From Candidatus Jorgensenbacteria bacterium CG03_land_8_20_14_0_80_38_39 (GTDB lineage: Bacteria; Patescibacteriota; Minisyncoccia; UBA6257; GWB1-50-10): a stretch of 58,711 nucleotides of DNA. A program made the translations under genes and the position numbers. Within the stretch, counting starts at the first letter, position 1, and every line of letters starts with the position of its first letter. The stretch is from positions 1 through 58,711 of the forward strand of contig PEUU01000020.1 of NCBI GenBank assembly GCA_002781185.1, written 5' to 3'. This document shows, piece by piece, positions 10,701 through 56,190 of this stretch. Under the pieces are notes generated by a model that had not been told where the DNA came from, did no database searches, and saw nothing but the letters and a program-made list of their open reading frames with translations.

Positions 10701-11534
10701 CTGATTTAATTTAAAGCGACCGACTCGGCCTAAATCATAACGGTCAAAGCGGCTAAACATCGGGTCAATTAAAGCTTGAGCGTTTTTAACCGTGGCTAAC
10801 TCGCCGGGCCTCAGTCTTTCATAAAGGTCAATATAAGATTCTTCAATAGTATGAACTTTATCCTTTTTTAAGGTGGCTTGAAGATACTGAATTTCTCCCT
10901 TGTCTTCTTTGGCAAAAGTTTCCAAAATTTTTTGGTCTTCGGTTAAACCGAAAATTCTCAAAAGTTCGGAAACCGGGGCTTTTCTTTTCCGGTCAATTTT
11001 AACCCCGATGAAACCGTCTTGACTGGTTTCAAATTCCAGCCACGAACCGCGGCTAGGAATGACTTTGGCGCCAAAATATCTTTTCCCGTGGATAACTTCG
11101 GCGGTAAAATAAATTCCGGCTGACCGAATTAATTGAGAAATAACTACTCTTTCAACGCCATTAATGATAAAAGTTCCCCGTTCAGTCATTACTGGAAAAT
11201 CTCCCAAATAAACATTATCTTGAACCTTGGTCCTTTTTCTGACCTTATCAATTAATTTAACTTTAATTCTTAAAGAGGCTTCGTAAGTTTGGTCTTTTTC
11301 CTTGGCTTGCCCCTCGGTATATTTCGGGGAATCAAAGCTGTAATCCAAAAAATGAAGTTCCAGTTCTTTGCTAGTATAGTCTTTAATTGGCGAAATCTCA
11401 TCAAAAAGTTCTTTCAAGCCTTCTTTTAAAAACCATTCATAAGAAAGGGTTTGAATTTCAATTAAATTTGGCTCGGGATATTCCGGACCTTGACGAGAAG
11501 AAAATATTTTGGTTTTTAACGCTGGTAGGGACAT
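4713..11534 (-). CDS. rpoBC: DNA-directed RNA polymerase beta-beta' fusion (rpoB and rpoC in one ORF)
   Basis: 2273-aa uninterrupted ORF. The N-terminal ~1045 aa are RpoB-like (…[13 protein letters not shown]…, ends …[11 protein letters not shown]). A ~26-aa Lys/Glu-rich linker is encoded at about 8315-8395. The C-terminal ~1200 aa are RpoC-like (YECYCGKYK zinc motif, [12 protein letters not shown] catalytic motif). Confidence 0.9.
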
Positions 11535-14403: not shown

Positions 14404-15234
14404 TTATTTGTAAGATTTCATAGCGTTGATGATTTTTTTAAATTCCCCGGCTTTTAAACTGGCTCCGCCAACCAAAGCGCCGTCAATTTCCGGGTATTTA
14501 AGAAAGGCGGCTAAATTTTCTGAATTAACAGAACCGCCGTACAATAATTTTGAATTTTGAATTTTGAATTTTGAATTAAGAAACGATTTTATAAACTTTG
14601 CCATTTCAGCGGTTTCGGCTGGTGCAGCGGCCCGGCCAGTGCCAATTGCCCAGACTGGCTCGTAAGCCACAATAAGAGAATTTTGAATTTTGAAATCCGA
14701 AATCCGAAGTCTGAAATCTGAAGTCTGAAATCTGAAGAGGTCTTTTTCTAATTGATTTTTTACATAATTCTTTGCCCATTTTATATTCCGCCCTGTTTCA
14801 TTTTTCATCTGCGTCAGTCCGCGTTCAGTCCACGTCAGTCCGCGTTCAGTCCGCGTTTGTCCGCGTTGAGAAGGTTCGCCAATACATAAAATCACTTTTA
14901 AGCCAGCGCAGAGAGCGGCAATGATTTTTTTATTAATCATTTCATCGGTTTCTTTTAAATAAATTCTCCTTTCCGAATGGCCGACAATAACATATTTAAC
15001 TCCCAGATTTTTAAGCATCTGGGAAGAAATTTCTCCGGTGTAAGCGCCGCTTTCGGCCCAAAAAACATCTTGAGCCGCCAGCGAAGCTTTTTTTAAAATT
15101 TTTGAAATCGAAGATAAAAATACAAAAGGCGGGGCAATAATAATATTTTCTTTGTCTATCGCCCGAGCCAAATTAAGCGCTTTTTGCTCCTCAAAGGGAT
15201 TCATCTTCCAATTGGCAATTATGATTTTCTTCAT
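14404..15234 (-). CDS. tpiA: Triosephosphate isomerase carrying repeat-encoded insertions
   Basis: NWKMN, VGHSERR, AYEPVWAIGTG and YGGSV motifs are present. There are 69 residues between CIGE and AYEPVWAIGTG, versus 34 in E. coli TPI from memory. The extra residues (QRGQTRTERGLTWTERGLTQ and FRFQTSDFRLRISDFKIQNS) are encoded by tandem repeats. Confidence 0.9.
   Translation of the reverse strand: MKKIIIANWKMNPFEEQKALNLARAIDKENIIIAPPFVFLSSISKILKKASLAAQDVFWAESGAYTGEISSQMLKNLGVKYVIVGHSERRIYLKETDEMINKKIIAALCAGLKVILCIGEPSQRGQTRTERGLTWTERGLTQMKNETGRNIKWAKNYVKNQLEKDLFRFQTSDFRLRISDFKIQNSLIVAYEPVWAIGTGRAAAPAETAEMAKFIKSFLNSKFKIQNSKLLYGGSVNSENLAAFLKYPEIDGALVGGASLKAGEFKKIINAMKSYK
14548..14578. repeat. Heptamer tandem array (gaatttt x4) inside tpiA
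   Basis: gaattttgaattttgaattttgaatt encodes NSKFKIQNSK. Confidence 0.85.
14679..14740. repeat. Heptamer tandem array (gaaNtNt x about 9) inside tpiA
   Basis: gaattttgaattttgaaatccgaaatccgaagtctgaaatctgaagtctgaaatctgaag. It gives a 21-nt / 7-aa periodic peptide DFRFQTS-DFRLRIS-DFKIQNS. It resembles the arms of 16S insertion 6. Confidence 0.85.
14809..14867. repeat. GCGT-rich 10-11 bp tandem units (cagtccgcgtt) inside tpiA
   Basis: Bases 14828-14865 are 34/38 identical to 30281-30318 in 16S insertion 3, by hand alignment. Confidence 0.85.
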
Positions 15235-28100: not shown

Positions 28101-28262
28101 TAGAGCAAAGCGAATTAAAAACTTTTTTGTTGTCCCAATAATCGTGCCTCGCTAATGTTCAGCACGATTTCGACAATAAATTTAATTAATCCACGCACAG
28201 CTTCCGCTACGCGTGCCTTGTTACGACTTCACCCATGTCACCGAGCTTACCCTAACCCAGCT

Positions 28263-28396
28263 TTTTGTTCTCAAGAACAAAAAGCGGCGCTGACTTACGT
28301 TGACTAAACGCTGACCCACGCAGAATTTCTTCCGCGTCGGTCTGCGTAATGTCTGCGTTCTTCCGCGAGCTTTTTGCGCTTCAGCGCAAAAAGCTG
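28263..28396 (-). other. 16S insertion 1, tip of helix 44 (about 134 nt, no ORF)
   Basis: It is flanked by cccagc/gctggg. Two terminal mini-hairpins (ctttttgttc-tcaa-gaacaaaaag and ctttttgcgc-ttca-gcgcaaaaag) enclose an imperfect hairpin of acgc/gcgt-rich units. Confidence 0.75.
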
Positions 28397-28764
28397 GGCT
28401 TTAGGTACTCCCGGCTCCCTTGGTGTGACGGGCAGTGAGTACAGGACTCGAGAACGTATTCACCGCGGCGTGCTGATCCGCGATTACTAGCGATTCCGGC
28501 TTCATGAGGGCGAGTTGCAGCCCTCAATTCGAACTGAGACCGAGTTTGATGGGATTAGCTCCGCCTTACGGCTTAGCAACCCATTGTCCCGGCCATTGTA
28601 ACATGAGTGTCGCCCAGGGCATCAAAGGGCCATGCTGATTTGACGTCGTCCTCACCTTCCTCCGTCTATACGACGGCAGTCTCTTCTGACACTTATAACA
28701 GAAGACAAGGGTTGCGCATGTTTCCCCATTGAAGGGAGCGCCTCACGGCACATGCTGACGGCCA

Positions 28765-29699
28765 TATTATTCCATTATTACTAATGGTATGGACTATACC
28801 ATCACCCTCTTCTTTTAAGAAAAAGAAGGGGGGACCGGCGTTTTATTCTTTATTTTACAAAAGAATAAAATCTCTAAGGTCTTTTTGAGATTAAGTCTCT
28901 ACGGGGTATGAATACTGATTTTTGTAATTTTAATGAATACGGAAAAATTAAGGAAAGAAATTTTTTAGTCTCTAATCTAGAAAAATACAAACAAAAAGTT
29001 TTAGCGCTATGATAATTATAGATTTTTATTCTCCGAAAACCTAACGATTGTATAAGTATTCTGTCTTGTTCTGCCTCCTCTTTATTGCTATAAACAATAC
29101 GACAATCGCTATAAAAATCTTTTGCCACAGAACCATCTCCATCAAATCTGCCTGCCATATAAGGCGAGATCAGTTTTCTGACAATAAAATTACTTAGATT
29201 ATTCTCTAATCCCTTAAATTCCCTCAACAAAGGACGACTATTTACATATAAATGATACGCTTTGGTGCGTCTTTTAAATTTATCTGGTCTGTAAATATAA
29301 AGTTTTAATCTTTTCTCGGGGAAAAATCTCAGAAAAAATTCACGAAATTTATCTATTAACAAAGTATTAGTATTACTTATACCAATACTACTTCCCCAAT
29401 AATAACCATCTGCGCACCACAAACCTAATATATAAGCATCGTCTTTTGTCTTAAAATTCCAAAAATCAGTATTCATACTTCCCACGGTATTACCCATCTG
29501 TTCGCTTCGCGAACACGCTGATTTACGCTGATTAATACGCTGATAAACGCTGATAAAAATTCCGCGTAAATCCGCGTCAGCGCCAAAGGCGCTAAAATCC
29601 GCGTTTATCCGTGTGTTTTACGAAGTAAAATGATTAGGGCTTCACCGTTATGAGCCAGTTTTTCATTCTAAATTTCTCTAGAATGGGTCGACATTTCAA
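28765..29699 (-). mobile_element. 16S insertion 2 (E. coli position about 1050), about 935 nt intron-like element with LAGLIDADG ORF
   Basis: The conserved ctgacggccat | … | catgcagcacctgt is split, and the boundary is ambiguous by the 4-nt ccat repeat. The insertion contains several hairpins and an acgctgat/atccgcgt repeat block at 29515-29613. Confidence 0.75.
28874..29497 (-). CDS. LAGLIDADG homing endonuclease (inside the 16S insertion)
   Basis: 207 aa with two LAGLIDADG-like motifs (ILGLWCADGYYWG and YMAGRFDGDGSV). It is on the same strand as the rRNA. Confidence 0.8.
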   Translation of the reverse strand: MGNTVGSMNTDFWNFKTKDDAYILGLWCADGYYWGSSIGISNTNTLLIDKFREFFLRFFPEKRLKLYIYRPDKFKRRTKAYHLYVNSRPLLREFKGLENNLSNFIVRKLISPYMAGRFDGDGSVAKDFYSDCRIVYSNKEEAEQDRILIQSLGFRRIKIYNYHSAKTFCLYFSRLETKKFLSLIFPYSLKLQKSVFIPRRDLISKRP

Positions 29700-29839
29700 C
29701 CATGCAGCACCTGTCCCGGCGTCCTTGAAAGAAAATTTTCCTTTCGGAAAATCGTCACCGGGATTTCAAGCCCTGGTAAGGTTCCTCGCTTACCATCGAA
29801 TTAAACCTCATGTTCCACCGCTTGTGCGAGTCCCCGTCT

Positions 29840-29871
<32 letters not shown>

Positions 29872-29967
29872 TCCCAGGCGGTCCACTTAATGCGTTAGCT
29901 ACGCCACTCCGAGGGTCGATACTCGAAACAGCTAGTGGACATCGTTTAGGGCGTGGACTACAAGGGT

Positions 29968-30337
29968 CAAGTTGTTACTTCGTAACAATCGCAGACTTAC
30001 GCTGACTTCACGCTGACTTACGCAGAAGTAAACGTAGACACGAGTTACGCGACACAGACATTTCTGCTGTGTTCTGTATATCGCTATACAGGTCGGACTA
30101 TATCTTCACCCGTTTAAATTTTACTTGTGTAAAATTTTGACGGGGTTTGGCGTGTAGTCTCTACGGAGTCCTGTTAGTCATAACAGGTTCCCTCGGTGTT
30201 TTCCATAAAATGGATTTTCACCGATATAGCCAAATTACACTTTAATATTGCTACTAAATGAGACACCATTGTTGCTTCGTGTCCGCGTCAGTCCGCGTTA
30301 AGTCCGCGTCTGTCTGCGGTTTCGCGAAGCGAAACGT
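29968..30337 (-). other. 16S insertion 3, within the 785-806 block (about 370 nt, no ORF)
   Basis: It splits ggactacaagggt | atctaatcc. The ends carry inverted GCGT-rich repeat arms (29989-30035 versus 30279-30320) and terminal mini-hairpins (gttgttac-ttc-gtaacaa and gtttcgc-gaa-gcgaaac). Confidence 0.75.
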
Positions 30338-30653
30338 ATCTAATCCTTTTTGCTCCCCACGCTTTCGCGCCTCAGGGTCAGGAACGTCCCAGCAGAATGC
30401 CTTCGCCTTTGGTGTTCCAGCCGATATCAACGGATTTCACCCCTACACCGGCTGTTCCATCTGCCTCTAACGCCCTCAATCCCGCTCATCTCTTCAGCGG
30501 CCTTAGGGTTAAGCCCTAAGATTTAACTGAAGATGCAGCGGGACCCCTACGCGCCCTTTACGCCCAATAAATCCGGATAACGCTTGGGGCCTTCGTATTA
30601 CCGCGGCTGCTGGCACGAAGTTTGCCACCCCTTATTCTATTCCTACTATCAAT

Positions 30654-30789
30654 CGTGTCTCGCTATCGCTCATCACCTTACGATTCCAAACTACGAATGC
30701 ATCCGAATCTACGAAAATAAATTTCAAATTTGTAGATTCGCATCAATTTGTAGTTTTGGATCGGTAGTGTCGAACAATAGTGAGACACG
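30654..30789 (-). other. 16S insertion 4, V3 region (about 136-nt hairpin)
   Basis: The outer stem is cgtgtctc…gagacacg. The inner arms are gattccaaactacgaatgcatccgaatctacgaa (30682-30715) and its imperfect complement (30729-30763). Confidence 0.7.
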
Positions 30790-31044
30790 ACTTTATCGGA
30801 ATAAAAAGCAGTTTACAACCCTAGGGCCTTCATCCTGCACGCGGCGTCGCTCGATCAGGCTTTCGCCCATTGTCGAATATTCTCGACTGCTGCCTCCCGT
30901 AGGAGTACGTTCCGTGTCTCAGTAACGTCGTTGGGGAATAGCCTCTCAGCTCCCCTACCCGTCGTCGCCTTGGTGGGCCATTACCTCACCAACAAGCTGA
31001 TAGGACCTAGGCCGCTCCCGAAGCGACTTGCGTCTTTACTGGTA

Positions 31045-31205
31045 ATTGGATTTTATTCGCAAGTCGCTTCAGAATTTCTAATTTCTAATTTTTAATTTCT
31101 AATAAATGATTTAATGACTTAATGTTTAAAAATTAAATCACTAAAAATTGATTGAAAATTTAAAATTGAAAATTGAAAATTGAAGAACTTGTAAACAAAA
31201 TCCAA
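31045..31205 (-). other. 16S insertion 5, helix 10 / V2 region (about 160 nt)
   Basis: The stem is ctggtaattggatttt / aaaatccaactaccag. The arms are heptamer arrays aatttct x4 and attgaaa x5. Confidence 0.65.
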
Positions 31206-31295
31206 CTACCAGACTATAGGATATTACCCAATCTTTCGACTGGCTATTTCCTACTTTGGGGTATGTACCAAGGTGTTACTAACTCGTTCGCCACT

Positions 31296-31730
31296 GTCAG
31301 ACATCAGACATTAGAAATCGGATTTCGGATTTTTTGAATTAATGAATTAATTTGTTTTGATTCCACTTTATATTCTTCGATTAATGCATCGCAATTTCCA
31401 CAATTTACATTGGAAAAGTTTAAAATTCTTATCTGCCACAAATGCGTAATTGTTTCATCTGAGGAACCAAGCGCCATATAAAGAAAACGTTTGAATTCGT
31501 TTTGCGAGTTCTTTTTTGCGAATCCCTCAGTAATCTGAGCGGAAATCGCTTTGGCTGAATTACAAACTTGAGATTTTAATTCAAATTCGTTTCGTGGCAA
31601 TTGATTTACCAGTTCATAAATTCTCGGCAATAAATCCATTGCCCTTTTATAAATTTGTAATTCCGTTACGTCTTTCATTAAATCCAATTATATCACCCGA
31701 AATCTGAACTCTGAAGTCTGATATCTGACC
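31296..31730 (-). mobile_element. 16S insertion 6, helix 6 / V1 (about 435 nt) carrying a four-helix-bundle ORF
   Basis: It splits cgttcgccact | cgttcgacttgcatg. Inverted arms gtcagacatcagacattagaaatcggatttcgg (31296-) and ccgaaatctgaactctgaagtctgatatctgac (-31730) can form a long stem around the ORF. Confidence 0.8.
31304..31687 (-). CDS. Four-helix-bundle protein of the 23S rRNA intervening-sequence protein family
   Basis: 127 aa. IYKRAMDLLPRIYELVNQLPRNEFELKSQVCNSAKAISAQITEGFAK…GSSDETITHL resembles the S23p / IVS four-helix-bundle family. It is paralogous to 43238-43621. Confidence 0.75.
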   Translation of the reverse strand: MDLMKDVTELQIYKRAMDLLPRIYELVNQLPRNEFELKSQVCNSAKAISAQITEGFAKKNSQNEFKRFLYMALGSSDETITHLWQIRILNFSNVNCGNCDALIEEYKVESKQINSLIQKIRNPISNV

Positions 31731-31956
31731 GTTCGACTTGCATGCCTTATCCACGCCGCCAGCGTTCATCCTGGACCAGGATCAAATCCTCTAAGAAATG
31801 CGGATGAACGCAGATATATACGCAGATAAACACAGATAAACAAGTTATCCGCGTAGACCCGCGTTTTAATCCACGTAAATCCGCGTCAAAATTGGGACAA
31901 CAAAAAAATCTTTAATTTTTAATTGTAAATGTTCATTCAGCATCATTCCGAATATC

Positions 31957-35480: not shown

Positions 35481-35520
35481 AAATCCCTATATTTAACACC
35501 AAATCCCTATATTTAACGCC
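35481..35520. repeat. 20-bp direct repeat x2
   Basis: aaatccctatatttaacRcc occurs twice. taaactcgac also occurs twice, at 35601 and 35625. Confidence 0.85.
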
Positions 35521-35542
35521 AAGAAAACGCCAGAACCGCCAT

Positions 35543-35645: not shown

Positions 35646-36152
35646 TTATTTAACATTAAAACGCCTTTTTAGCTCGTCAGCGCCCTCAATGATATCCACA
35701 ATCATCGGCAGGCAATATTTCTCTATTTTCTGTTCCACAATCCATTCCCAGACATCTGCGGCTAACTTCTGAGATCCTAACCATACGCTTTTCTGCAAGG
35801 GAATAAAATTGTATGCCCTCAATAACCTTGTAAGGGCGATTCTTTTGGAGTTAAAATTCACCGGAATATCAAAACTCAATATGTACCATTGCCCTTTTTC
35901 ATTAAATACTGGGACGGCCGGGTGATAACGACGAAACAGTTTTTTGCCGCTGGGGGTAAGGATAATCTTTTTTTGATGCGCCTGAAGAAAACCTCGTTCA
36001 ATGAGTCGTTTTAAACTTTGACGCAAATATTTTTTTCGTCTGTGACGCTCAATAAATTCCTCAACAAGAAACGTTCCCGCTTCACCAAGGTCAGAGAAAA
36101 ATTCGCTCCACTCGCGTATATGTCTTCGAGCATCTCGTGATGTTTTAGCCAT
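35646..36152 (-). CDS. PaaX-like protein: winged HTH + Cas2-like ferredoxin-fold domain (paralog A)
   Basis: The ATG at 36152 is preferred (the track start at 36170 is a TTG inside the palindrome). The wHTH segment is LKRLIERGFLQAHQKKIILTPSGKKLF. The Cas2/PaaX-central-like motif is WYILSFDIPVNFNSKRIALTRLLRAYNFIPLQKSVWLG. Confidence 0.6.
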   Translation of the reverse strand: MAKTSRDARRHIREWSEFFSDLGEAGTFLVEEFIERHRRKKYLRQSLKRLIERGFLQAHQKKIILTPSGKKLFRRYHPAVPVFNEKGQWYILSFDIPVNFNSKRIALTRLLRAYNFIPLQKSVWLGSQKLAADVWEWIVEQKIEKYCLPMIVDIIEGADELKRRFNVK

Positions 36153-36164
36153 AATAATTGCTAT

Positions 36165-36198
36165 CCTCAATATTGTATCATATGATACAAGATTGAGG
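36165..36198. promoter_or_regulatory. 34-bp palindrome (one mismatched pair) 13 nt upstream of paralog A; candidate operator
   Basis: cctcaatattgtatcatatgatacaagattgagg shares the frame CCTCAA-N3-TGTA-N-CATATG-N-TACA-N3-TTGAGG with 35543-35576. Confidence 0.6.
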
Positions 36199-43049: not shown

Positions 43050-43190
43050 AAAATTTTTGTCCCGATTTTGTATCCCGCATAGCGGGATTTACAAAATCGA
43101 GGATCCACGATTTCTTTAATCCCGATCGTGAAGCGATCGTGGATAGAAATCGGGAGATTAAGTTTTAAATCAGGATTCAACATAGGAATT

Positions 43191-43250
43191 AGTAGTTAGG
43201 AGTTAGTAGTTAGTAGTTAGTAGTTAGTAGTTAGAAATTAGGAGTTAGTT
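43191..43250. repeat. Heptamer array agtagtt/aggagtt x8; left arm of the four-helix-bundle cassette
   Basis: agtagttaggagttagtagttagtagttagtagttagtagttagaaattaggagtt is the inverse of the taggagttagt units at 43630-43673. Confidence 0.85.
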
Positions 43251-43621
43251 TGTGAAGCGGATCTCAGTACTTGCGACAATTTATTTAACATTCGCATAAT
43301 CTCATTAAGTAATGAAATGATAGAATCGTACTCACTTATTGATATATAGCTCAATTCCTTTGATAACTCTAATTGAGTTTCTAATTCTGCACCAGAGGCA
43401 AAAGCGATATTAATAAATTGAGAATATTCTTTTGCGTGTCTCCGTAAATATCCTTCGGCAACATTGGAAGGAATCCCCACCGCCGCTCGTCTCATCTGAC
43501 TTACCAAACCATATGTCTCTGATTTGGGAAAATTTTTCGTTAACTTATAAACTTCTAAAACTAATTTCATAGATTTTTTCCAAACAATTAATTCTCTAAA
43601 TGATTTTGTTTTTGAATTCAT
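43238..43621 (-). CDS. Four-helix-bundle protein of the 23S rRNA intervening-sequence protein family
   Basis: 127 aa. FRELIVWKKSMKLVLEVYKLTKNFPKSETYGLVSQMRRAAVGIPSNVAEGY…GAELETQLELS is a classic pattern of this family. Confidence 0.85.
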   Translation of the reverse strand: MNSKTKSFRELIVWKKSMKLVLEVYKLTKNFPKSETYGLVSQMRRAAVGIPSNVAEGYLRRHAKEYSQFINIAFASGAELETQLELSKELSYISISEYDSIISLLNEIMRMLNKLSQVLRSASQTNS

Positions 43622-43629
43622 ATTTCTCG

Positions 43630-43673
43630 CTCCTAAATACTAACTCCTAGATACTAACTCCTAAACACTAAAT
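43630..43673. repeat. 14-bp units aactcctaNatact x3; right arm of the four-helix-bundle cassette
   Basis: ctcctaaatactaactcctagatactaactcctaaacacta. Confidence 0.85.
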
Positions 43674-44739: not shown

Positions 44740-45354
44740 ATGCGAAATAATGACAATAAGAAAATGATACAAAGAGTTGATATCCGTAATATCCGGAAGA
44801 ACTCAAGAGCTTACAAGATTCTAAAATACCTTGCTCTCGGTTCTGGATTCATTATCCTCTCTACCATCTCGCCCTATGGTGGCGCTAGAGTGGTGAAAAG
44901 CCTTATTCAGAATTATCTTAGACGGAAGCGTTTTGAAAAATACCGATTCTTAACTGATTTAAAAAATTTACAAAAAAGAGATTTAATTGATTATCAAGAT
45001 CTCGGAAATGGCAATGTTAAGATAATTATCACCGCTCGGGGAAAACAAAAAGTTCTTCTCAACAATATTGATGAGATAAAACTAAAGAAACAAAAACGAT
45101 GGGATGGTAAATGGAGATTGATAATATTTGATATTCCTCATAGCCGCAAAGGAGCGCGCGACGCCTTCCGAAAAATATTGAAAAATTTGGGCTTCTATCC
45201 CCTTCAGAAAAGTGTTTTCATCACGCCTTATCCCTGTGAAAATGAAATAGATTTTATTGCCTCAATCTTTGACATCCGCCAAAATGTGCTCCTGCTCTAC
45301 GTAAACAATTTTGAAGGCGAAGAAAAACTAAAATATCACTTCAAAATTAAATAA
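44740..45354 (+). CDS. PaaX-like protein: winged HTH + Cas2-like domain (paralog B)
   Basis: 204 aa with an N-terminal hydrophobic segment. The wHTH segment is LKNLQKRDLIDYQDLGNGNVKIIITARGKQKV. The Cas2/PaaX-like motif is WDGKWRLIIFDIPHSRKGARDAFRKILKNLGFYPLQKSVFITPYP. Confidence 0.65.
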   Translation: MRNNDNKKMIQRVDIRNIRKNSRAYKILKYLALGSGFIILSTISPYGGARVVKSLIQNYLRRKRFEKYRFLTDLKNLQKRDLIDYQDLGNGNVKIIITARGKQKVLLNNIDEIKLKKQKRWDGKWRLIIFDIPHSRKGARDAFRKILKNLGFYPLQKSVFITPYPCENEIDFIASIFDIRQNVLLLYVNNFEGEEKLKYHFKIK

Positions 45355-45358: not shown

Positions 45359-45400
45359 TAGAATGTCACCGTTAGAATGTCACCGTTAGAATGTCACCGT
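45359..45400. repeat. 14-bp direct repeat x3, each carrying a TGTCAC half-site
   Basis: tagaatgtcaccgt occurs three times, starting 5 nt after the paralog B stop. Confidence 0.9.
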
Positions 45401-45426
45401 TATTAAGCCATGGCTTAATAACGGTG
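45395..45426. repeat. Perfect 32-bp palindrome downstream of paralog B
   Basis: caccgttattaagccatggcttaataacggtg has the same TGTCAC-N9-GCCATGGC frame as 44701-44738. Confidence 0.95.
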
Positions 45427-47936: not shown

Positions 47937-48983
47937 TCATTTGTCAAGGACTAAATTTGCCACATCTTGCACGTGTTTCACCAGTGTCGCTGCGTAACCC
48001 CATTCGTTATCATACCAAGAAAGAATTTTTACCAAATCCTTGTCAATGACTTTAATGAAATTCAAATCAATGATTGCTCCGTAGGGCTCGCCAATAATAT
48101 CCGAGGAAACCAATTGTTCTTCAGTAACTTTTAAAATCCCCTGCCAGCGCGGTTCTTGACTGGCTTTTTTAAAAATTTCCTTAATTTCTTCTACCGAGGT
48201 TTCTCGCTTGGCCACAAAAGTAATGTCGGCAATGGAGCTAGTGAGCAAAGGCACTCTTAAAGCGAACCCGTCAAATTTTCCTTCCAGTTCTTTAATCACT
48301 CGGGTGACGGCAATCGCCGCGCCAGTGGTGGAAGGCACAATATTTTGAGCGCCGGCCCGGCCGCGCCGCCAATCGCTTCCCTTTGTCGGCCCATCAACTA
48401 AATTTTGAGTGGCAGTATAAGCGTGAACAGTATTTAAAATGGCTTTTTTAATTCCCGGATTTTCTGCCATAATAGCCATTACCGGCGAGACAGCATTAGT
48501 GGTGCAAGAAGCGTTAGAGGTTAAAACCACGGAATTTAACTCGCCTTCATTTATTCCTATTAAAATAGTCTTGCCTTCAGGACCATCGGCATCTTTGGCC
48601 GGGGCAGTGATAATTACTCTTTTGGCGCCGGCTTGAAGATGAACTTTGGCTTTTTCATAAGATTCAAAAATTCCCGTGGCTTCAATCACAACATCAATTT
48701 TTAAATCTTTCCAGGGCAATTTAGCCGGTTCTTTTTCCTGAAGAACTAAAATTTTTTTATCATCAACCATCAAATAATTCTGCGTAAATCCGCCTTCAGT
48801 CTGCGTCAATCCGCGAATTTCCGCAGGAAATTGTCGGTACACGGAATCGTATTTCAAAAGATAAGCGAGATTATCAACACTGCCCAAATCATTGATGGCG
48901 ACAATTTCAAAATCCGGCTGATTAAAAGCTTGCCTAAAAAACAACCTTCCTATTTTTCCAAACCCATTTATAGCAATACGCAT
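47937..48983 (-). CDS. gap: Glyceraldehyde-3-phosphate dehydrogenase
   Basis: 348 aa with INGFGKIGR, the active site SNASCTTN and WYDNEWGY. An extra RGLTQTEGGFTQ segment is encoded by GCGT-type repeats at 48780-48827. Confidence 0.9.
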   Translation of the reverse strand: MRIAINGFGKIGRLFFRQAFNQPDFEIVAINDLGSVDNLAYLLKYDSVYRQFPAEIRGLTQTEGGFTQNYLMVDDKKILVLQEKEPAKLPWKDLKIDVVIEATGIFESYEKAKVHLQAGAKRVIITAPAKDADGPEGKTILIGINEGELNSVVLTSNASCTTNAVSPVMAIMAENPGIKKAILNTVHAYTATQNLVDGPTKGSDWRRGRAGAQNIVPSTTGAAIAVTRVIKELEGKFDGFALRVPLLTSSIADITFVAKRETSVEEIKEIFKKASQEPRWQGILKVTEEQLVSSDIIGEPYGAIIDLNFIKVIDKDLVKILSWYDNEWGYAATLVKHVQDVANLVLDK

Positions 48984-49213
48984 AATTTATATTAAAAAAT
49001 AATTATTTTAGCGAGGCCGACTTCGTCTGCTGGAAAGCGACTACGTCGTCCGAAGGCTGACTTGCCCCGTCTTAAGTTCCGCAGAAATTTTAGCGCAAGG
49101 TTTTTCAAAAATAGCCTTCTCAAGATATTTTTATTATAACAAAATTATTACAACAAATCCAGCAATTTCTCCGTCTTTAAATCCAGCAATCTTATTACAA
49201 CAAATCCGGCAAT

Positions 49214-49353
49214 TCTTTCATCTTCTTTTATCTGCGGATATACAGTTTTGTCTGCGGATAGACAAATAACTTTAGTCAACAAATCTTTCATCTTCTTTTA
49301 TCTGCGGATATACAGTTTTGTCTGCGGATAGACAAATAACTTTAGTCAACAAA
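49214..49353. repeat. Perfect 70-bp tandem duplication
   Basis: The unit is tctttcatcttcttttatctgcggatatacagttttgtctgcggatagacaaataactttagtcaacaaa. Each copy ends with the left part of the C-type palindrome. Confidence 0.9.
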
Positions 49354-49380
49354 CTCACGATCGTGAGTTTGTTGACTAAA
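49341..49380. repeat. Perfect 40-bp palindrome (C-type), downstream of the giant gene
   Basis: tttagtcaacaaactcacgatcgtgagtttgttgactaaa is identical to 55468-55507. Confidence 0.95.
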
Positions 49381-49460: not shown

Positions 49461-52400
49461 TTAAGGGATAATTGTTCCTTTCAAAATTAAAGAAATATCA
49501 CGCCAGTCCCAAAAACGTGTCCAACTGCCTTTGGTCTCAAAAATGTCAGAAATGTAAAGATTGCCGGAATTAGGAGAATTGTGGAAGGTTTTTACACTTA
49601 AATGGTATTCATAAGAACTAACATCAGAATTACCCGGTTGGCAATTATCCCCTTCCACAACCAAATAATAAGTTTGGTTAGCAGAAAGAATAATATTGTT
49701 ATTGGACTTATTAAAATTGAAAAGGTCAAAAGTCCATGATGGCATTATTCTCTCATGCGGAACAAGGTCAGTTGAAATAATGTCAGCCGGGTCAGCGCTG
49801 GGTTGATTTTCGTCCGTGCTACTGGCTTTTACCAAAGAAACTCTGGCATTATAGCCGTTCTGGCCGCTCTGCTCTAACCAAATTTTATAACTATCCAATT
49901 TGACTGTCTGGTTAAATTTTATTTTTTCAGCCGCCCGACTGCATTCTCTATAACCGAGAGGCCAATCATTACTACCGTCGGGCCTATCACCTCCTTGAGA
50001 ATAATCAATCAATGTTAAAGGCAAAATTGGCATTTGAAAAGTAGTGGTCGCTATTTCTGAATAAAGGTTAAAATCATCTTTGGCCCGAACAGCTATTTCA
50101 TAAGTTTGGCCTTCGGTTAAGGTTAAGCCGGAAATTTGTTGGGAAGCGATGCCGCGAGTTAAAGACTGCCAAGAACTGGAAGCCAGTGGTTCATTTAAAA
50201 GAGCGTAATTAGTCTCATAACTTATTAATCTATCTAAAGTATCCGGGTCATTAGAACCGCTCCAATTAACAATCACTTGGGGGTCATCATTATTATTGTT
50301 AAAAACAGCTGTTACCGGACCAGGAGACGACGGCGGCTGGTGAATCGGCGGTTCGTTCTGAAAATAATATTTTGTTTTATCAACCGCGGCCAAATTAAAA
50401 TACTGATTGCCACCTCCTCCCCCGCCAAAATCATAAAAAGCCAAGGTTAAATAATCGGCCGGCGAAAAAGCGACATCAGAAACAGAACTCGCGGTTTTAA
50501 TATTAAATCTTTTATCTTCTAAATCTCCAAAGCTATAAGCGCTACTAAGCGGTCCCCCTGGCTGACAAGAATAGTTATTCCAAGGTATTAAAAGAGAAGG
50601 AGAAGAAGAAGGACCATAACCGTGACAAGCATTATATTTCAAACTGAGAAAATTCGGGTCCTCTGGCGTAAGCCAGTGGGCGGTATCAAATGTTTGCTGT
50701 TTTGGTGCATCATGATTCAAATAAAACATAACTAATTTCCAATTCTGATTATTTGTTGTATCATTTTTATCCCACAGTGGACGACTAGAGCTTGTTACTA
50801 AATCAACAAAGTAATTGTCACTGCCTGGCCTTGGATCACGATAAAAATAAACGCCATCAAAAAAGCTTTGAGCAAAAATAGTGGTAGTGGAATAATTGGC
50901 AAATCCATCGCGATCTTGAACTTCAAATTGAAATTCGTAATTCTTTCCAATTTCATTAATTCCATAGGAATAAGCTAAACTGGAACTGCTTTTATAAAGC
51001 AAGGTGGAATTACCATCAGTAATATCATAAAAGGAATAAATGTTCGTTGAAGTTGCACCTTCAGCGTCAATTGAAACATTCCAGGAAAAATCTATTTTGG
51101 GATTCGGACTATAAGCTGCCTGGAGATTATTTATTGAGGGTTTTTCTCGCGGCTCGGCTAAATTCGCCGAATTTTGCGGATGAGGGGTATTGCGAATTTC
51201 AAAATCAGCGGCACTGTCTGTATCACAGCCATTGCCCAAAAATTCGTTGTCCAGTTGACTGGACACACACTGATTACTTTGCCAAGCTTTTCTTTCTAAA
51301 CTTTTATTAGCTTCGGGAACAGTTGAGGTGGCAGTTGACACCGACAACAGAGGCGCACCATAAGAAAAACTATCAATAATTTCTGACTCAGAAATATCAA
51401 AAATAGGAGTTGTTGTGCCAACCAAAAAAATCGTGGCACCGCTGGAATTACCGGAAAGAGAAAAACCGCTATAAGTCATATCGGATTTATCCTTTAAAGA
51501 ACTAGTAGCATTTGAATTTATTAAAAGAAAAAAACTTTTTGCCGCTATTTGATGACCATTGCTAAAATTTTTCTTTATAATTTTATCGGTTGAAGTAGCG
51601 GTACCGCTTAAATACTGGATTGAAAAATTATCCAAAGGAATGTTGCGATTTGTCGGATTATAAAGTTCAATAAATTCATCATTGGCCGTATCGCCCCTAA
51701 TCTGAATTTCGCTAATCACAATATGATTAACGCCGGCTGGCTGAGCAGAATTAACAGAAATTGTGGTAGAAGTGGCGGTTGAAGAAGCATTTTGCTCATC
51801 AAAAATAATTAAACTTACTGGGTAAGAGCCGGCTTGAGAATAAAAATGAGTCGTGGTGGCAGTAGAAATCGTGGAAGTGGCGCCATCGCCAAAATCCCAT
51901 TGATAAAAAACAATTTGACCATCATCGGTTGAAGAAGCGGCATCAAAAATTATTTCTTCGTCAACTTGAGGATTCTGCGGCGCATAAACAAAAAAAGCGC
52001 TCGGCGCTTGATTGGTTGAAGAAATTTGATTTTGCTGGCCGGGGGTTGGCTGAATTTCTTTCCATTCATTATTAATCAACTGAAGCGATTTGCCATTATC
52101 ATTCGCTCCCCAGCTTGATTGATAATTTACTTGATCCACAATTAAATCGCCATTTTTAATAGCAATCGTCTCACCGGTATTATTCAAGGAAAAAGAGCTG
52201 TCAATAATCGTCCCTGAATAATTTGACCAGTCAGTTAAAAATTTTTCAGGATTATCAACGATAATAGCATATTCGCTCGGAGAAATTGTTAAAGAGCCTC
52301 TATATACTAAAAGAAGGTGATTAGAACCTCCTTCAGAAAATTTCCAGCCGTCTAAATTTACAGTAGAAGTTCCGGCATTAAAAATTTCTATCCATTCCCT

Positions 52401-54785
52401 GCCGGTATCATTGCCTTTGGGATCATACATAATTTCCGTAATTTTTATTTCTGCCACAGCTTGCTGTTGATTGTTGGTTGTTTGTTGTTGGTTATTAGTT
52501 GACGTCCCGCCGCCTCCACCACCGCTTGTAGAAATTGGCGCTAATTGTGTATTTTCCTGCCGAGGCGTCCCGCCGCTCGTAGCCGAAGTGTGCCAACCAC
52601 AAGGCGCGGACAAATGCGGACTAGACGCGGACTCATACGGACAAATATCCCGTTCCATTGTTTTTCTTTCGGTCGCCGAAGTATTATCGCCGGCCGGCCA
52701 GTTAGGATTAGCCAAAACTTCGTCAATCAAATTACATTGCTCATCAAAAAGCCTTAATCCTTCATCAGAATTGGACAAAACGCCTGTATAAACAAAGTCG
52801 GCCGTGATTGTCGGCAGAGTATTGTCCTTAGTCCTTTCCAAAAGATAAAAACCGCCAGCAAGAATTTTTTTGTTAATGATTTTGCGATTGTCTGGCTGAC
52901 CAAAAACTACTTTAATCTGCTCTCCTTTGTCAATTAATTGCCAGCCGTTTAAATCAACTTCGCTGTTAGAAATATTTTTCAATTCAATCCATTCATCGCT
53001 GGCGTTGTTTGAAGTCCCCATCCAAGCAACTTCATTAATAATAACTTTTTGATGAGAGGGCGATTGACCAGTGGCAAAACTGCAAGGTTTAAAAGTTGGA
53101 GATGAAATTTTAGATTGATCTTGCAGTGAAGTATCAGAAACTTTTGACAGGGATGAGGTCGATGAAGTCGCTGATATCGATGATGTCGCTGCCAGCAATG
53201 GCGAAGTTTCTTCAACAACTTTTTTCTCCAATTCCTTTGAACCCAAAACTTGATATTTGAGTTTGGCGGAAATTTTGCCGCTGGCTAAATCAGCCGCCGA
53301 GTAAAAATATGTTCCCAAAGCTGCATCTAACGGCACTAAGTAAACATAGTCATAATTGCCTTTGGTATCGCTTAAAATTGAAATCTCAATTTTTTTATTC
53401 GGCGCCGGCGGCTCAAGAGATATCAAAACCCGACTATTGGGCGTAAATCCCTGACCGCGCTGATGAATTACTTCTCCTTTTTTTACTTCAGTTTTGTCAA
53501 GAGAAATTTTGGGGTCAATGATAGGGAGGACAATGGTTGTTTGTTTTTCTTCTCTGGTTGAAGTTCCAAAATTTTTATTTTCTGGCTGTTGGGAATTGAC
53601 CAAATCCGGCGTGTTGAGGGGGATTTCTTTAACCAAATTCCGCGGTCCTTGATTACTAAAAACACTGGAGAAGGTTTCACTAATGGTAGAAGCAACATTA
53701 CCGACAACATTACTGACAGCGCTCATCACCTGTCCAAAAAAGGACTTCTTTTCTTGAATATTTTCTTGAATAATTTCCGGGCTATTTTTTGCTTTTTCAA
53801 CTTCTTGGAAGAAAAGATTAATCACACCAGCGCCATATTGAACGGATTTAGTGGAAAGACGAGACCAGTAATTTTCTAAAACTATATCTGATTCTAATGT
53901 CGCATCGAATTTTATTGAGAATAAGATATTTGGAATTGATTTTCTAAATAAATAATAGTCCCCAAATTCACTATCAATTTTTGTAGGATACAAATATTTA
54001 TCTATTCTTACCTCATAATCTGGTTGTGGTAATTCGTATCCGCTTTGTGTTCCAATTGTATCCTTGCTGTAAAAATTATTATTTGAATATTTCGCTAATT
54101 CATCAAAATAAGAATTTAGATTAGAAAAAATTATTGGGGATTTATTTTGCAATCTTTGGTCTAAATTATTATCAGAATTAGAAAGAGTATATTTTTGAGT
54201 ATAGTTTTCATAAGGACTATTTCCAGGATGAGGGTCATTTCTTGTATGGTCTGGCACCGAAGTATCTTCAATTAAATGCAAAATATGGCCGAGGGTAAAC
54301 ATTGCTTTTTCTTTTTCACCTTGAACATAAAATCTAATCGCTCTTTGCCAGGTAAAATCGGTTTCAGTTGAAAGCACAGTGATTTTTAACTGTTGGACAG
54401 CTGTTAAAATTGAAGCAATGGTTGCCGGCACTTTATAAGTCAAATTGTTTTGATTACTGCTATCCTGCGCCCAATTTTTTGATTTTTGCCAGGTACCTAC
54501 ATTAACCAAGGGGTCAATGGCTGGATCATAAGTAAGCCCGCGATTATACACCGGGTCATAAAAATGGTTCATCCAGCGCGGAATATCATCCTCGTGCCGC
54601 GAACCATCTAATAAATAAGAAACCAAGTCATCAGAAATTTTATTATTCGGAAAATTTTGATTATAAAGCTTAACAACTTCTTCTGTTAAAAAGGCGTGTG
54701 TTTCCACGTCATAAGCAAAAGCGTTATGAGCATAAAAAATTAAAAGACCGGAAATGATAATTAATAATTTAAATTTAAACTTCAT
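49461..54785 (-). CDS. Giant secreted multidomain protein (Zn-dependent phospholipase C / nuclease P1-like N-domain, 3 lamin-tail domains, PKD, FN3-like)
   Basis: 1774 aa with a signal peptide. His/Asp-rich N-domain motifs are HEDDIPRWMNHFYDP and HLIEDTSVPDHTRNDPH. LTD-like segments are INEVAWMG…DEWIELKN (aa 578-), ITEIMYDP…REWIEIFN (aa 778-) and ISEIQIRG…DEFIELYN (aa 1020-). A PKD-like segment is WDFGDGATS (aa 925-1012). Poly-Gly and Asn/Gln linkers are present. Confidence 0.75.
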   Translation of the reverse strand: MKFKFKLLIIISGLLIFYAHNAFAYDVETHAFLTEEVVKLYNQNFPNNKISDDLVSYLLDGSRHEDDIPRWMNHFYDPVYNRGLTYDPAIDPLVNVGTWQKSKNWAQDSSNQNNLTYKVPATIASILTAVQQLKITVLSTETDFTWQRAIRFYVQGEKEKAMFTLGHILHLIEDTSVPDHTRNDPHPGNSPYENYTQKYTLSNSDNNLDQRLQNKSPIIFSNLNSYFDELAKYSNNNFYSKDTIGTQSGYELPQPDYEVRIDKYLYPTKIDSEFGDYYLFRKSIPNILFSIKFDATLESDIVLENYWSRLSTKSVQYGAGVINLFFQEVEKAKNSPEIIQENIQEKKSFFGQVMSAVSNVVGNVASTISETFSSVFSNQGPRNLVKEIPLNTPDLVNSQQPENKNFGTSTREEKQTTIVLPIIDPKISLDKTEVKKGEVIHQRGQGFTPNSRVLISLEPPAPNKKIEISILSDTKGNYDYVYLVPLDAALGTYFYSAADLASGKISAKLKYQVLGSKELEKKVVEETSPLLAATSSISATSSTSSLSKVSDTSLQDQSKISSPTFKPCSFATGQSPSHQKVIINEVAWMGTSNNASDEWIELKNISNSEVDLNGWQLIDKGEQIKVVFGQPDNRKIINKKILAGGFYLLERTKDNTLPTITADFVYTGVLSNSDEGLRLFDEQCNLIDEVLANPNWPAGDNTSATERKTMERDICPYESASSPHLSAPCGWHTSATSGGTPRQENTQLAPISTSGGGGGGTSTNNQQQTTNNQQQAVAEIKITEIMYDPKGNDTGREWIEIFNAGTSTVNLDGWKFSEGGSNHLLLVYRGSLTISPSEYAIIVDNPEKFLTDWSNYSGTIIDSSFSLNNTGETIAIKNGDLIVDQVNYQSSWGANDNGKSLQLINNEWKEIQPTPGQQNQISSTNQAPSAFFVYAPQNPQVDEEIIFDAASSTDDGQIVFYQWDFGDGATSTISTATTTHFYSQAGSYPVSLIIFDEQNASSTATSTTISVNSAQPAGVNHIVISEIQIRGDTANDEFIELYNPTNRNIPLDNFSIQYLSGTATSTDKIIKKNFSNGHQIAAKSFFLLINSNATSSLKDKSDMTYSGFSLSGNSSGATIFLVGTTTPIFDISESEIIDSFSYGAPLLSVSTATSTVPEANKSLERKAWQSNQCVSSQLDNEFLGNGCDTDSAADFEIRNTPHPQNSANLAEPREKPSINNLQAAYSPNPKIDFSWNVSIDAEGATSTNIYSFYDITDGNSTLLYKSSSSLAYSYGINEIGKNYEFQFEVQDRDGFANYSTTTIFAQSFFDGVYFYRDPRPGSDNYFVDLVTSSSRPLWDKNDTTNNQNWKLVMFYLNHDAPKQQTFDTAHWLTPEDPNFLSLKYNACHGYGPSSSPSLLIPWNNYSCQPGGPLSSAYSFGDLEDKRFNIKTASSVSDVAFSPADYLTLAFYDFGGGGGGNQYFNLAAVDKTKYYFQNEPPIHQPPSSPGPVTAVFNNNNDDPQVIVNWSGSNDPDTLDRLISYETNYALLNEPLASSSWQSLTRGIASQQISGLTLTEGQTYEIAVRAKDDFNLYSEIATTTFQMPILPLTLIDYSQGGDRPDGSNDWPLGYRECSRAAEKIKFNQTVKLDSYKIWLEQSGQNGYNARVSLVKASSTDENQPSADPADIISTDLVPHERIMPSWTFDLFNFNKSNNNIILSANQTYYLVVEGDNCQPGNSDVSSYEYHLSVKTFHNSPNSGNLYISDIFETKGSWTRFWDWRDISLILKGTIIP

Positions 54786-55526: not shown

Positions 55527-55562
55527 ACAGCCAATGATTTAACTAACAGCCAATGATTTAAC
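55527..55562. repeat. 17-bp direct repeat x2 (19-bp period)
   Basis: acagccaatgatttaac occurs at 55527 and 55546. Confidence 0.85.
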
Positions 55563-55602
55563 ACTTAATTATTTAACATTTAATTTATTTACGTTAAGAA
55601 GT

Positions 55603-56190
55603 TTAAAGATTTAATTTCTTTAATGTTCCCGTTTGAGTAATTTTAAAGATATGTACAGAATCAATTAAATCTAATTCTGCTAAAGCGTTTAAAAACTCTT
55701 CTGGCAATTTATTTCTGCCAATCCAGACGCTTTTCTGAAGCATTGTAAACCCCAAAGCCAATAAAGTAGATCTCAGCCAATCTCGTTTTGCTCTGTGTTT
55801 TTCAGGAATGTCAAAAACAATGAGATTTATATCATTGTCTTTTTCGTGTCTAACATTAAATAGAGGAAAGTGAAAGGTAATTTTAATTTTTTCTAATTTT
55901 TCCCTACCTAAAGATGTAATCGTCCACCATGTTTTGTTTCCCTTTTGCTTCTTTTCTACAAAGCCCTGCCTTTTTAACCTTGAAAGCAAACTATAAAATT
56001 TATGTTTTTCTTTTTGTAATAATTTAGGATTGATTCTTGTTGTGTCCGTTTTAGAGAAATCGGGGAGCGTCGGATAAAATACCCTCCTTTTCATTTTTTT
56101 GTAATCATAACCGCTAAGAAATATATTAAGGAGAGATTCAGTTATCCGTCCAGTCTTTTTTAAAATTTCCAAAATTAATTGAGTTTTCAT
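55603..56190 (-). CDS. PaaX-like protein: winged HTH + Cas2-like domain (paralog C)
   Basis: 195 aa. The wHTH segment is LSRLKRQGFVEKKQKGNKTWWTITSLGREKL. The Cas2/PaaX-like motif is INLIVFDIPEKHRAKRDWLRSTLLALGFTMLQKSVWIG. Confidence 0.65.
   Translation of the reverse strand: MKTQLILEILKKTGRITESLLNIFLSGYDYKKMKRRVFYPTLPDFSKTDTTRINPKLLQKEKHKFYSLLSRLKRQGFVEKKQKGNKTWWTITSLGREKLEKIKITFHFPLFNVRHEKDNDINLIVFDIPEKHRAKRDWLRSTLLALGFTMLQKSVWIGRNKLPEEFLNALAELDLIDSVHIFKITQTGTLKKLNL

Follow-up and report, generated by a model that had tools for sequence, protein, structure and literature searches.

Bacterial minisatellites, or variable-number tandem repeats (VNTRs), and the short tandemly repeated repetitive (STRR) heptamers of cyanobacteria consist of short head-to-tail units that are gained and lost as whole units between strains. 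The GC clusters of yeast mitochondrial DNA (mtDNA) are GC-rich mobile repeats in an AT-rich genome and are found in intergenic regions, in rRNA genes and in frame in var1. Rickettsia palindromic elements (RPEs; Ogata et al. 2000) are, as summarized in PMC10969869, palindromic repeats of about 150 bp that fall into ten families and are known from Rickettsia; they sit in frame in many unrelated housekeeping genes, where they are translated as additional peptide. Insertions in the rRNA genes of the candidate phyla radiation (CPR) have been surveyed and classed by intron type and open reading frame (ORF), in a main text that uses neither the word 'repeat' nor the word 'hairpin' (PMC11270868). Here, a family of short tandem repeats with the core ACGCNGA is described from contig PEUU01000020.1 of Candidatus Jorgensenbacteria bacterium CG03_land_8_20_14_0_80_38_39 (GCA_002781185.1). 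The whole stretch of 58,711 nt is referred to as the window. The analysis centers on the copy within gap, the gene of a type I glyceraldehyde-3-phosphate dehydrogenase (GAPDH). The window has a GC content of 38% and comes from a Parcubacteria/Paceibacteria-like member of the Patescibacteria, its contigs are found again in many groundwater assemblies, including GCA_002787415.1, and the nearest named relatives of its GAPDH belong to Jorgensen-, Wolfe-, Colwell- and Liptonbacteria.

The original prediction, made from the sequence of the window, held that gap carries an extra segment of repeat units, and four 10/11-nt units with the core ACGCNGA can indeed be read at 48780-48815, where they encode GAPDH residues 57-68 (RGLTQTEGGFTQ). 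The codons of this segment are CGC GGA TTG ACG CAG ACT GAA GGC GGA TTT ACG CAG. On the sense strand the cores that encode R57-Q68 are TCGCGGA, ACGCAGA, AGGCGGA and ACGCAGA, with a spacing of 10/11/10 nt (measured with at most one mismatch to ACGCGGA). A candidate fifth unit, which covers the codons CCT GCG GAA ATT (PAEI, CTGCGGAAAT) and ends at 48827, is located 10 nt upstream; its core, CTGCGGA, is degenerate and has two mismatches. Four independent assemblies agree fully in the gap sequence, and the array is therefore no assembly artefact. A chance low-complexity match has only the short length of the segment in its favor and is, like an artefact, considered refuted by the enrichment and clustering of the units, their identity across independent assemblies and samples, and their conservation in other genomes. 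The favored explanation, to which a probability of about 60% is assigned, sees in the gap segment a passenger copy, translated along with the gene, that stems from a dispersed family of short tandem repeats tolerated in permissive loops and spreading between loci and lineages. The direct observations behind it are the identity of the unit across loci, the frame logic of the unit, the absence of the segment from most orthologs, a 21-nt polymorphism between strains, and further in-frame copies in Patescibacteria.

The frame logic follows from the 21-nt double unit CGCGGACTGA+CGCGGACTGAA. Four of its six frames are open, namely every antisense frame and a single sense frame, which reads RGLTRTE, and the two remaining sense frames are stopped by TGA; the six-frame table thus bears out the expectation that the unit is open in at least two combinations of frame and orientation. 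Since only one sense frame of the double unit is open, the frame shared by gap and tpiA is forced and no coincidence. With TGA, TAA or CTGA as spacers, arrays of a single unit length, be it 10 or 11 nt, are closed in every sense frame, so that a gene stays open only if the two lengths alternate, which gives 10 + 11 nt or seven codons. Because every coding copy is in frame and free of stops, the copies in protein genes would be translated rather than excised; the 21-nt step of the polymorphism argues in the same direction. As coding copies change only by such frame-preserving steps, they are not phase-variation switches. The insert codons are minority codons in this genome, where CGC, ACG and CTG make up 15%, 15% and 7%, respectively, of the codons synonymous with them.

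The same unit in the same frame had been proposed for tpiA, the gene of triosephosphate isomerase (TIM), and is found there as the insert RGQTRTERGLTWTERGLTQ, which compares with RGLTQTEGGFTQ in gap (Table 1). In one strain (contig L215) the tpiA gene has exactly one extra 21-nt double unit (RGLTWTERGLTRTERGLTQ) and two other differences in 831 nt. The copy number of the array thus differs between close strains, as in the definition of a VNTR. No length variation of the gap array was found among the strains sampled, and no copy-number variation of the rRNA arrays among six strain contigs. Elsewhere in the window, the strain indels in tandem arrays are whole units of one 14-nt and one 7-nt array. 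The tpiA gene also contains two in-frame heptamer arrays, perfect or nearly so, at 14546-14577 (AATTTTG x4.6) and 14678-14737 (TGAAATC x6.6), which encode FKIQNS and SDFRLRISDF; orthologous TIMs have heptad-like peptides at the same site (KFKIQNS, KLKIENL and ISNFKFHISNFKFQ).

The gene of a secreted 1774-aa protein carries the family on the opposite strand, as had also been noted. Its cores are spaced 10 and 11 nt at 52604-52631 on the plus strand, and a degenerate fourth unit extends the array to about 52646. The array is translated as ICPYESASSPHLSAPCGWH, and 52604-52646 as ICPYESASSPHLSAPCG. The homologous LTD domain of a relative has about 12 residues fewer at this site. With Tandem Repeats Finder, repeats with periods of 10, 11 and 21 are detected at 14812-14867, 30281-30318 and 52605-52646; together with the 10/11-nt core spacing, these periods identify the arrays as head-to-tail tandem repeats. 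The copies in gap, tpiA and the giant gene are direct repeats without an inverted arm; inverted arms are present in the hairpin copies and absent from the coding copies.

Table 1. Repeat arrays of the ACGCNGA family in the window, their host genes and associated features
Feature	Position	Strand	Description
gap (type I GAPDH, 348 aa)	47937..48983	minus	PF00044 + PF02800; host of array
gap repeat array	48780..48829	minus	four clear units and a fifth degenerate unit upstream
GAPDH stretch across gap insert			EIRGLTQTEGGFTQNY
Array unit			(ACGCGGATGA)n
tpiA (276 aa)	14404..15234	minus	host gene; further in-frame heptamer arrays 14546-14577, 14678-14737
tpiA repeat array	14808..14866	minus	six units, spacing 10/11/10/11/10; encodes RGQTRTERGLTWTERGLTQ
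1774-aa LTD/PKD protein gene	49461..54785	minus	host of antisense-oriented array
Giant-gene array	52604..52646	plus	GCGCGGA / ATGCGGA / ACGCGGA and degenerate fourth unit; antisense to 1774-aa gene
16S rRNA gene	28181..31790	minus	six insertions; Rfam covers 28181-31331; 5' end near 31790 read from sequence
rrs leader hairpin	31798..31886 (folded region 31795-31890)	minus	upstream of 16S 5' end; repeat-built; 6-10-bp helices, symmetric internal loops
ACGCTGA/ACGCAGA array	29999..30026	minus	one side of 371-nt 16S insertion 29966-30336
TCCGCGT array	30282..30309	minus	other side of same 371-nt 16S insertion
Group I intron core	30074..30283	minus	RF00028, 76.9 bits; between the two arrays
Four ACGCTGA then three TCCGCGT units	29515..29604	minus	adjoin LAGLIDADG ORF inside 16S insertion
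ACGCNGA/TCNGCGT hairpin	28308..28358	minus	insertion near 16S 3' end; two small tetraloop hairpins flank

Half of the arrays in the window are located in the rRNA gene. The Rfam alignment of the 16S rRNA shows insertions of 157 and 147 nt, which are hairpins without an ORF, and one of 371 nt that cuts the 806R primer site between GGGT and ATCTAAT. The RF00028 match within the latter corresponds to model positions 1-253, and the two arrays lie beside the intron and outside its catalytic core. A LAGLIDADG ORF (28874-29497) occupies another insertion, next to a folded region at 29498-29612 (z = -3.5), and the region around the hairpin near the 3' end (28262-28395) has a z-score of -6.2. An ORF for a four-helix-bundle intervening-sequence protein (PF05635/TIGR02436) is found within the 16S gene at 31304-31687. 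With extra stem-loops in 16S, the PF05635 ORF and stable hairpins, the rRNA copies fit the structural definition of rRNA intervening sequences. The proposal that related units also build the rrs leader hairpin agrees with its segmented predicted fold (-44.1 kcal/mol, z = -8.4). All four hairpins of the window have the ACGCNGA arm 5' and the inverted arm 3'. The arms of other 16S insertions (31040-31200, 31297-31332 and 31699-31728) consist of the 7-nt units AATTTCT/ATTGAAA, TCAGACA and GAAATCT; their architecture resembles that of the ACGCNGA hairpins and their unit is different. Aligned by hand, the AATTTCT arm finds its best pairing with the ATTGAAA arm on the sense strand of the rRNA, where G-U pairs contribute.

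A census of the window showed 48 occurrences of ACGCNGA/TCNGCGT, with 15 ± 4 expected and a maximum of 26 in 200 simulations, and 29 of the 48 sit in seven tight clusters; the units are real, clustered and over-represented. Exact period-10/11 heptamer arrays in the window are limited to the ACGCNGA family and one unrelated array, and the single such array in 0.78 Mb of unselected metagenomic DNA belongs to the family (ACGCGGA) and has the same polarity. Four of eight arrays fall into the rRNA gene, which makes up 6% of the window (P = 0.0008), a strong enrichment. Coding sequences (CDS) hold three of eight arrays and cover 80% of the window (P = 0.011), which is below random placement. The suggestion that open frames let the units persist in coding DNA is supported. 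Open frames account for tolerance alone; they explain neither frozen synonymous sites nor a scattered distribution among orthologs. A 70-bp duplication (49210-49353) between the 1774-aa gene and gap had been assigned to the family, but it contains no core within one mismatch of ACGCGGA, only GCGGAT at 20-nt spacing, and the assignment is weak. The duplication is closed by a perfect 17-bp hairpin at 49340-49378 (TTAGTCAACAAACTCAC GATC GTGAGTTTGTTGACTAA), which is probably a terminator-like element.

In agreement with the view that the GAPDH segment is extra with respect to orthologs, it is absent in 79 of 121 close orthologs. Solved GAPDH structures lack it, and the best match, 1HDG from Thermotoga maritima, has an 8-residue gap exactly there. 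Among 120 close homologs the basal form has 337-338 aa and reads ...EVKA-ENGN-LVVDGK. RGLTRTERGLT(Q/R)NY is located at exactly the insert site in about 20 of them, and other repeat-like peptides at this site are KKSGTKNY, KTSDVKNY, QNLESxxF and QVSGVTKCQVSGVRKS. In the AlphaFold model (mean predicted local distance difference test, pLDDT, 86.7) residues 56-63 and 66-73 form a two-stranded ribbon with the turn at G64-G65, and each 7-residue repeat is modelled as one strand of a lengthened native beta-hairpin. One gap ortholog (P0024, L207:7089-8162) has an extra 33-nt insertion (PKQSKLATGQA) with a small GAGC/GCTC hairpin at the center of the array, which gives the array the appearance of having been split at its middle. 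The basal TIM form is CVGEP-LAVRKRGLAAAKNFV. Inserts of the RG(L/Q)TRTERGLT type are found in a handful of lineages, and other lineages have other repeat peptides at the same site (ATSDKRQ x2, RELRIKNAELR and KSQIANRKAQIS). For the TIM of the window, the model has the insert leave the fold between beta5 and alpha5 as an excursion of low confidence.

A lineage-specific GAPDH loop kept for protein function, for example as an interaction surface, with the likeness to repeats being secondary, would be consistent with the good conservation of RGLTRTERGLT(Q/R)NY in about 20 orthologs and with the ordered beta-ribbon, which is predicted with good confidence. Such an adaptive loop is nevertheless very improbable. 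The same DNA is present in tpiA, on the other strand in the gene of the secreted protein and in non-coding rRNA hairpins. The spacer positions change the amino acid, whereas the core codons, which are rare ones, are fixed at synonymous sites. In addition, the window copy has lost two Arg and one Leu, and the bearers are scattered in the tree.

This scatter is apparent from a neighbor-joining tree of GAPDH with the insert region masked, in which the bearers occupy about ten separate places. One insert-bearing protein (P0006) shares 91% identity with an insert-free one (P0061) and only 83% with its nearest insert-bearing relative; the same pattern of pairwise identities is seen for two further bearers (P0004 and P0008). 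The TIM bearers are likewise not mutual closest relatives, at a divergence higher than that of GAPDH. On the DNA level, P0006 has 42 nt (CGTGGACTTACGCGGACTGAACGCGGACTAACGCAGAATTAT) at the insert site where P0061 has 18 nt (GCAGCAAAGAACGGCAAT). A search of metagenome contigs for related gap loci returned mostly distant GAPDHs of 44-50% identity, few of them informative. The closest relative of the window gap, on contig L224 (91.6% nucleotide identity), has an intact array. Relative to it, the window array has changes at 6 of 36 nt, one core among them, and the remainder of the gene at 85 of 1011 nt (P = 0.12, not significant). On the L224 contig, an inverted gap fragment of about 117 nt (3272-3390) that includes the array (codons ~47-90) lies in intergenic DNA, some 850 nt downstream of the gap gene of that contig. 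This fragment has three mismatches to the window allele and is far closer to it than to the gap gene of its own contig; its homology stops at a 7-bp hairpin, AATTTCC-TGC-GGAAATT, at the array edge. The window has no such fragment at the orthologous place (between 47154 and 47307). The inverted piece demonstrates that array-bearing DNA does get copied to ectopic sites. Together, the scatter of the bearers, insert boundaries that are always the same and the ectopic piece of gap speak for lateral spread.

To survey the family beyond this genome, one genome per species was scanned for three ACGCGGA cores at 10/11-nt spacing, which yielded at least 119 stretches. Among the matches listed, to which all cross-genome counts in this and the following paragraphs refer, about 54 are from Chloroflexota, 12-13 from Patescibacteria and about 11 from Gamma/Betaproteobacteria, with further ones from Planctomycetota, Acidobacteriota, Desulfobacterota, Gemmatimonadota, Nitrospirota and others; 13 matches from Actinomycetota have the appearance of generic perfect repeats. 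Several features recur that were not part of the query: 84% of cases have a period of 10 nt, a T comes after the core in 60% of units, and in 52% of arrays the first unit is preceded by GG. An inverted arm, where there is one, likewise keeps to the 3' side of the ACGCGGA arm, with 38 such cases and three on the 5' side (P = 1e-8). The spacers on the paired arms are partly complementary (56%, compared with 39 ± 5% for shuffled partners). Telomerase-like independent extension of both ends of a break would predict this polarity, but it was rejected given the partial complementarity of the arm spacers and their variability within an array.

In Patescibacteria the arrays are in frame within conserved domains of TopA, UvrB (both arms), IF-2 (both arms), LepA and a GT2 enzyme, the first four encoded by topA, uvrB, infB and lepA, and also in RecG-, IleRS- and ValRS-like proteins. 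The 776-aa LepA of a Saccharibacteria contig (L084:180-2510) contains a complete GxxExxY/PF13366 nuclease domain in frame inside its GTPase domain, bracketed by the ACGCGGA arm ARINADLTRIDADGMRINADTDADTRG and the TCCGCGT arm SIRDNPRRNQRESAF; a second two-arm insert without cargo is located further downstream. Hidden Markov models (HMMs) for GxxExxY and PF05635 proteins match at three and none of the 119 listed array loci, respectively, so that cargo is occasional and not obligatory. Of the 63 single-arm arrays from outside Patescibacteria, 36 have their start at most 40 nt from the stop codon of a gene on their own strand, compared with nine at the end of a gene on the opposite strand. In one phage group (contigs L225, L226, L228, L237 and L240; 58-63% GC, up to five arrays per genome), the arrays fill tiny same-strand gaps between genes; L225 and L237 represent the same phage contig, IMGVR_UViG_3300033991_000115. 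The stop of the upstream ORF lies between -21 and +17 nt of the array start, in some cases at a TGA inside the array. A ribosome-binding-like TCGGAAGGA follows the array, and the start codon comes 9-23 nt later. Exact-sequence literature searches returned nothing on the arrays, searches on the rRNA insertions of the CPR, on tandem repeats in Patescibacteria and on GxxExxY proteins yielded no description of them, and a synthetic (RGLTRTE)x6 protein query gave no scorable match.

An origin without mobility, in which each array has grown in place by slippage from a chance seed (e.g. K-R-G as AAA CGC GGA) and the loci have converged on a CGCG motif, can draw on the whole-unit slippage directly observed. 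On the protein level, insert-free TIMs have RKRGL or VRKKGL where others carry RGLTRTERGL, and the self-complementary CGCG allows pairing between units (tpiA fold, z = -3.1). The insert-free GAPDH site (GCA GCA AAG AAC GGC AAT), however, has no seed. Convergence explains neither the identical spacers (ACTGAA) and boundaries nor the strict arm polarity across phyla and the arms that flank cargo genes. Growth in place at every site is therefore improbable, if less so than the adaptive loop.

Several observations weigh against the passenger explanation itself. In five gap orthologs with 70-83% protein identity, the six conserved degenerate codons of the insert are identical in all five, whereas elsewhere this holds for 31 of 176 (18%; P ~3e-5). 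The spacers of 3-4 nt differ among the orthologs and change the amino acid (L/T/Q/F), except for the spacer ACTGAA, which is invariant in the middle of every GAPDH insert. Judged from these alignments, it is the DNA unit rather than the codon that is conserved in the GAPDH insert. The frozen codons are at odds with neutral decay after a single old insertion and require recent or repeated acquisition, a homogenizing process or selection at the nucleotide level. All GAPDH inserts share the same boundaries and the same four units, which random insertion with selection as the only filter would not predict. Single-arm coding arrays are oriented 9 sense to 1 antisense (P = 0.02), though antisense has more open frames. 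No target-site duplication is present at the P0006/P0061 replacement, the one sister pair examined, so that this site does not conform to a miniature inverted-repeat transposable element (MITE). Finally, an all-against-all BLAST of the ORFs within 1.2 kb of the 119 listed arrays revealed no mobilizing enzyme, and only generic families recur.

The frozen cores would be expected if they were a functional nucleic-acid signal under nucleotide-level selection, such as arrayed binding sites for a DNA- or RNA-binding protein or an element of processing or structure, with roughly one unit to each turn of the helix. The mean spacing of 10.5 nt agrees with such phasing, and the contrast between fixed synonymous core sites (6/6 vs 18%) and varying spacers, the sense bias of the coding arrays, and the recurrence across phyla of the same core with its T after the core, GG before the array and strict polarity are consistent with a signal. 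Further support comes from the gene-end position outside Patescibacteria and from the phage arrays, which occupy intergenic gaps and precede TCGGAAGGA and a start codon. A core shared across phyla, the constancy of its polarity and its location at gene ends in Chloroflexota and in phage operons suggest an unrecognized cis-acting element. For the gap segment, a signal of this kind is a possible but rather unlikely explanation. The host genes are functionally unrelated (glycolysis, repair, translation, secreted protein), most orthologs work without the segment, and the window copy has changed at 6 of 36 nt, including one core, relative to its closest relative. Different repeat families occupy the same loops in other lineages, which argues for permissive sites rather than a specific signal. 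Moreover, Rfam has no family over the arrays, in the window or at 15 hairpin loci, and no binding partner is known. Two specific signals were considered and rejected. The canonical binding context of CsrA is A(N)GGA, which GCGGA does not provide, and the hairpin forms would bury the motif. DnaA boxes have a conserved CACA part, and it is there that the mismatches fall when TGTGGATAA is compared with CGCGGATAA.

It is also conceivable, as a tentative proposal, that the ACGCNGA arrays serve as arms in a new, pan-bacterial class of hairpin element, small and polar, a 'mini intervening sequence' that spreads directionally and optionally carries cargo. The GxxExxY PD-(D/E)XK nuclease in the LepA of L084 and the group I intron in the window 16S might be examples of such cargo. 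Homing, repair-coupled copying and templated 3'-end synthesis at breaks are speculative candidates for the directional mechanism. Essential protein genes and rRNA of Patescibacteria might then have been invaded by this element, with the same GAPDH loop being hit repeatedly, and the arm polarity, the frozen cores and the scattered orthologs might be signatures of its mechanism.

Under the favored explanation of a tolerated passenger, the gap and tpiA segments would belong to a dispersed family of alternating 10- and 11-nt units with the core ACGCNGA, which in this genome would mainly supply hairpin stems within 16S rRNA insertions and next to them. The copies in protein genes would be neutral and would have spread between loci and lineages rather than arisen separately at each site. 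Such a copy would survive if 10 + 11 = 21 nt keeps the reading frame, if the frame is free of stops, being either the one sense frame with its hydrophilic heptad RGLTRTE or any antisense frame, and if the site is a permissive surface loop, which in the modelled GAPDH would be an existing beta-hairpin that is lengthened. Once settled, an array would grow and shrink in whole 21-nt steps by replication slippage or unequal recombination and would decay by point mutation; the window gap copy may be such a decaying copy. The family might spread by recombination after DNA uptake or by another insertion mechanism.

The window contains further repeats and genes. Three PaaX_M/Cas2-like (plus PadR) genes (35646-36170, 44740-45354 and 55603-56190) are accompanied just past their stop codons by direct-repeat arrays with periods of 20, 14 or 15 nt (35481-35522, 45359-45402 and 55552-55591), and strains differ by one unit in the 14-nt array. 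The arrays TTAGTAG x8.7 (43189-43249) and one of 14-nt units (43630-43671) lie on either side of a free-standing PF05635/bAvd-like gene (43238-43621); one strain has an extra 7-nt unit here. On the minus strand at 4713-11534, the strain-contig gene table lists a single 2273-aa ORF with RpoB and RpoC Pfam domains, which appears to be a fused beta-beta' RNA polymerase gene. Of the strain contigs, L221 begins exactly at an rRNA insertion boundary (~30336) and L220 inside 16S at ~28565; repeat arrays probably fragment short-read assemblies of this genome.

The genomes of Patescibacteria are tiny, and yet the family adds peptide to GAPDH, TIM, TopA, UvrB, IF-2 and LepA and stems to rRNA. If the family is mobile, it would be a second independent case, after the RPEs of Rickettsia, of selfish DNA inside essential genes, and it would link the protein insertions to the long-noted, unexplained rRNA insertions of Patescibacteria. 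In practical terms, the 806R primer site is split by an insertion, contigs break at the arrays, and insert-bearing orthologs can mislead alignments and phylogenies.

Compared with known systems, the ACGCNGA family belongs with in-frame selfish or tandem repeat DNA, a kind already known. It is not a CRISPR, which has repeats of at least 20 nt and unique spacers of similar length, whereas the cores here have 7 nt and the spacers 3-4 nt. Like the repetitive extragenic palindromes and their composites (REP, BIME and REPIN) and MITEs (Correia, ERIC and BOX), hairpin copies are small, non-autonomous, mostly intergenic and often at gene ends. They differ in that the arms consist of tandem units instead of one imperfect palindrome and that one pair shows no target-site duplication; no transposase or RAYT was among the recurrent neighbors of the listed arrays, in a comparison that was not aimed at RAYT. 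With the yeast mtDNA GC clusters the family shares its occurrence in rRNA genes and in frame in a protein gene, in a different organism and with a different sequence, and the clusters are not known to consist of 10/11-nt tandem units. VNTRs and STRR sequences are similar in their tandem units and in whole-unit change between strains, and heptamer arrays occur in the window as well. Neither is known to have a core common to many loci and phyla, mirrored arms of fixed polarity or 21-nt steps. The rRNA copies of the window are stems of 16S insertions, some with PF05635, LAGLIDADG or a group I intron, as in the insertions and intervening sequences of CPR rRNA (Brown et al. 2015; PMC11270868); the family differs from these by its copies in protein genes. 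With RPEs, as summarized in PMC10969869, the family shares the presence of repeat DNA in frame in many unrelated housekeeping genes and, probably, its tolerance where the fold allows: it is in frame in gap, tpiA and the 1774-aa gene, and elsewhere in TopA, UvrB, IF-2, LepA and a GT2 enzyme. In size and symmetry the two differ, since the arrays span 30-60 nt and consist of 10/11-nt head-to-tail units with a 7-nt core, and coding copies often have a single arm and no palindrome. Set against that same account of RPEs, the ACGCNGA family is further distinguished by the change of copy number between strains, a core found in many phyla, and its presence in RNA genes as well. In its behavior, the Rickettsia palindromic element is the closest analogue of the ACGCNGA family.

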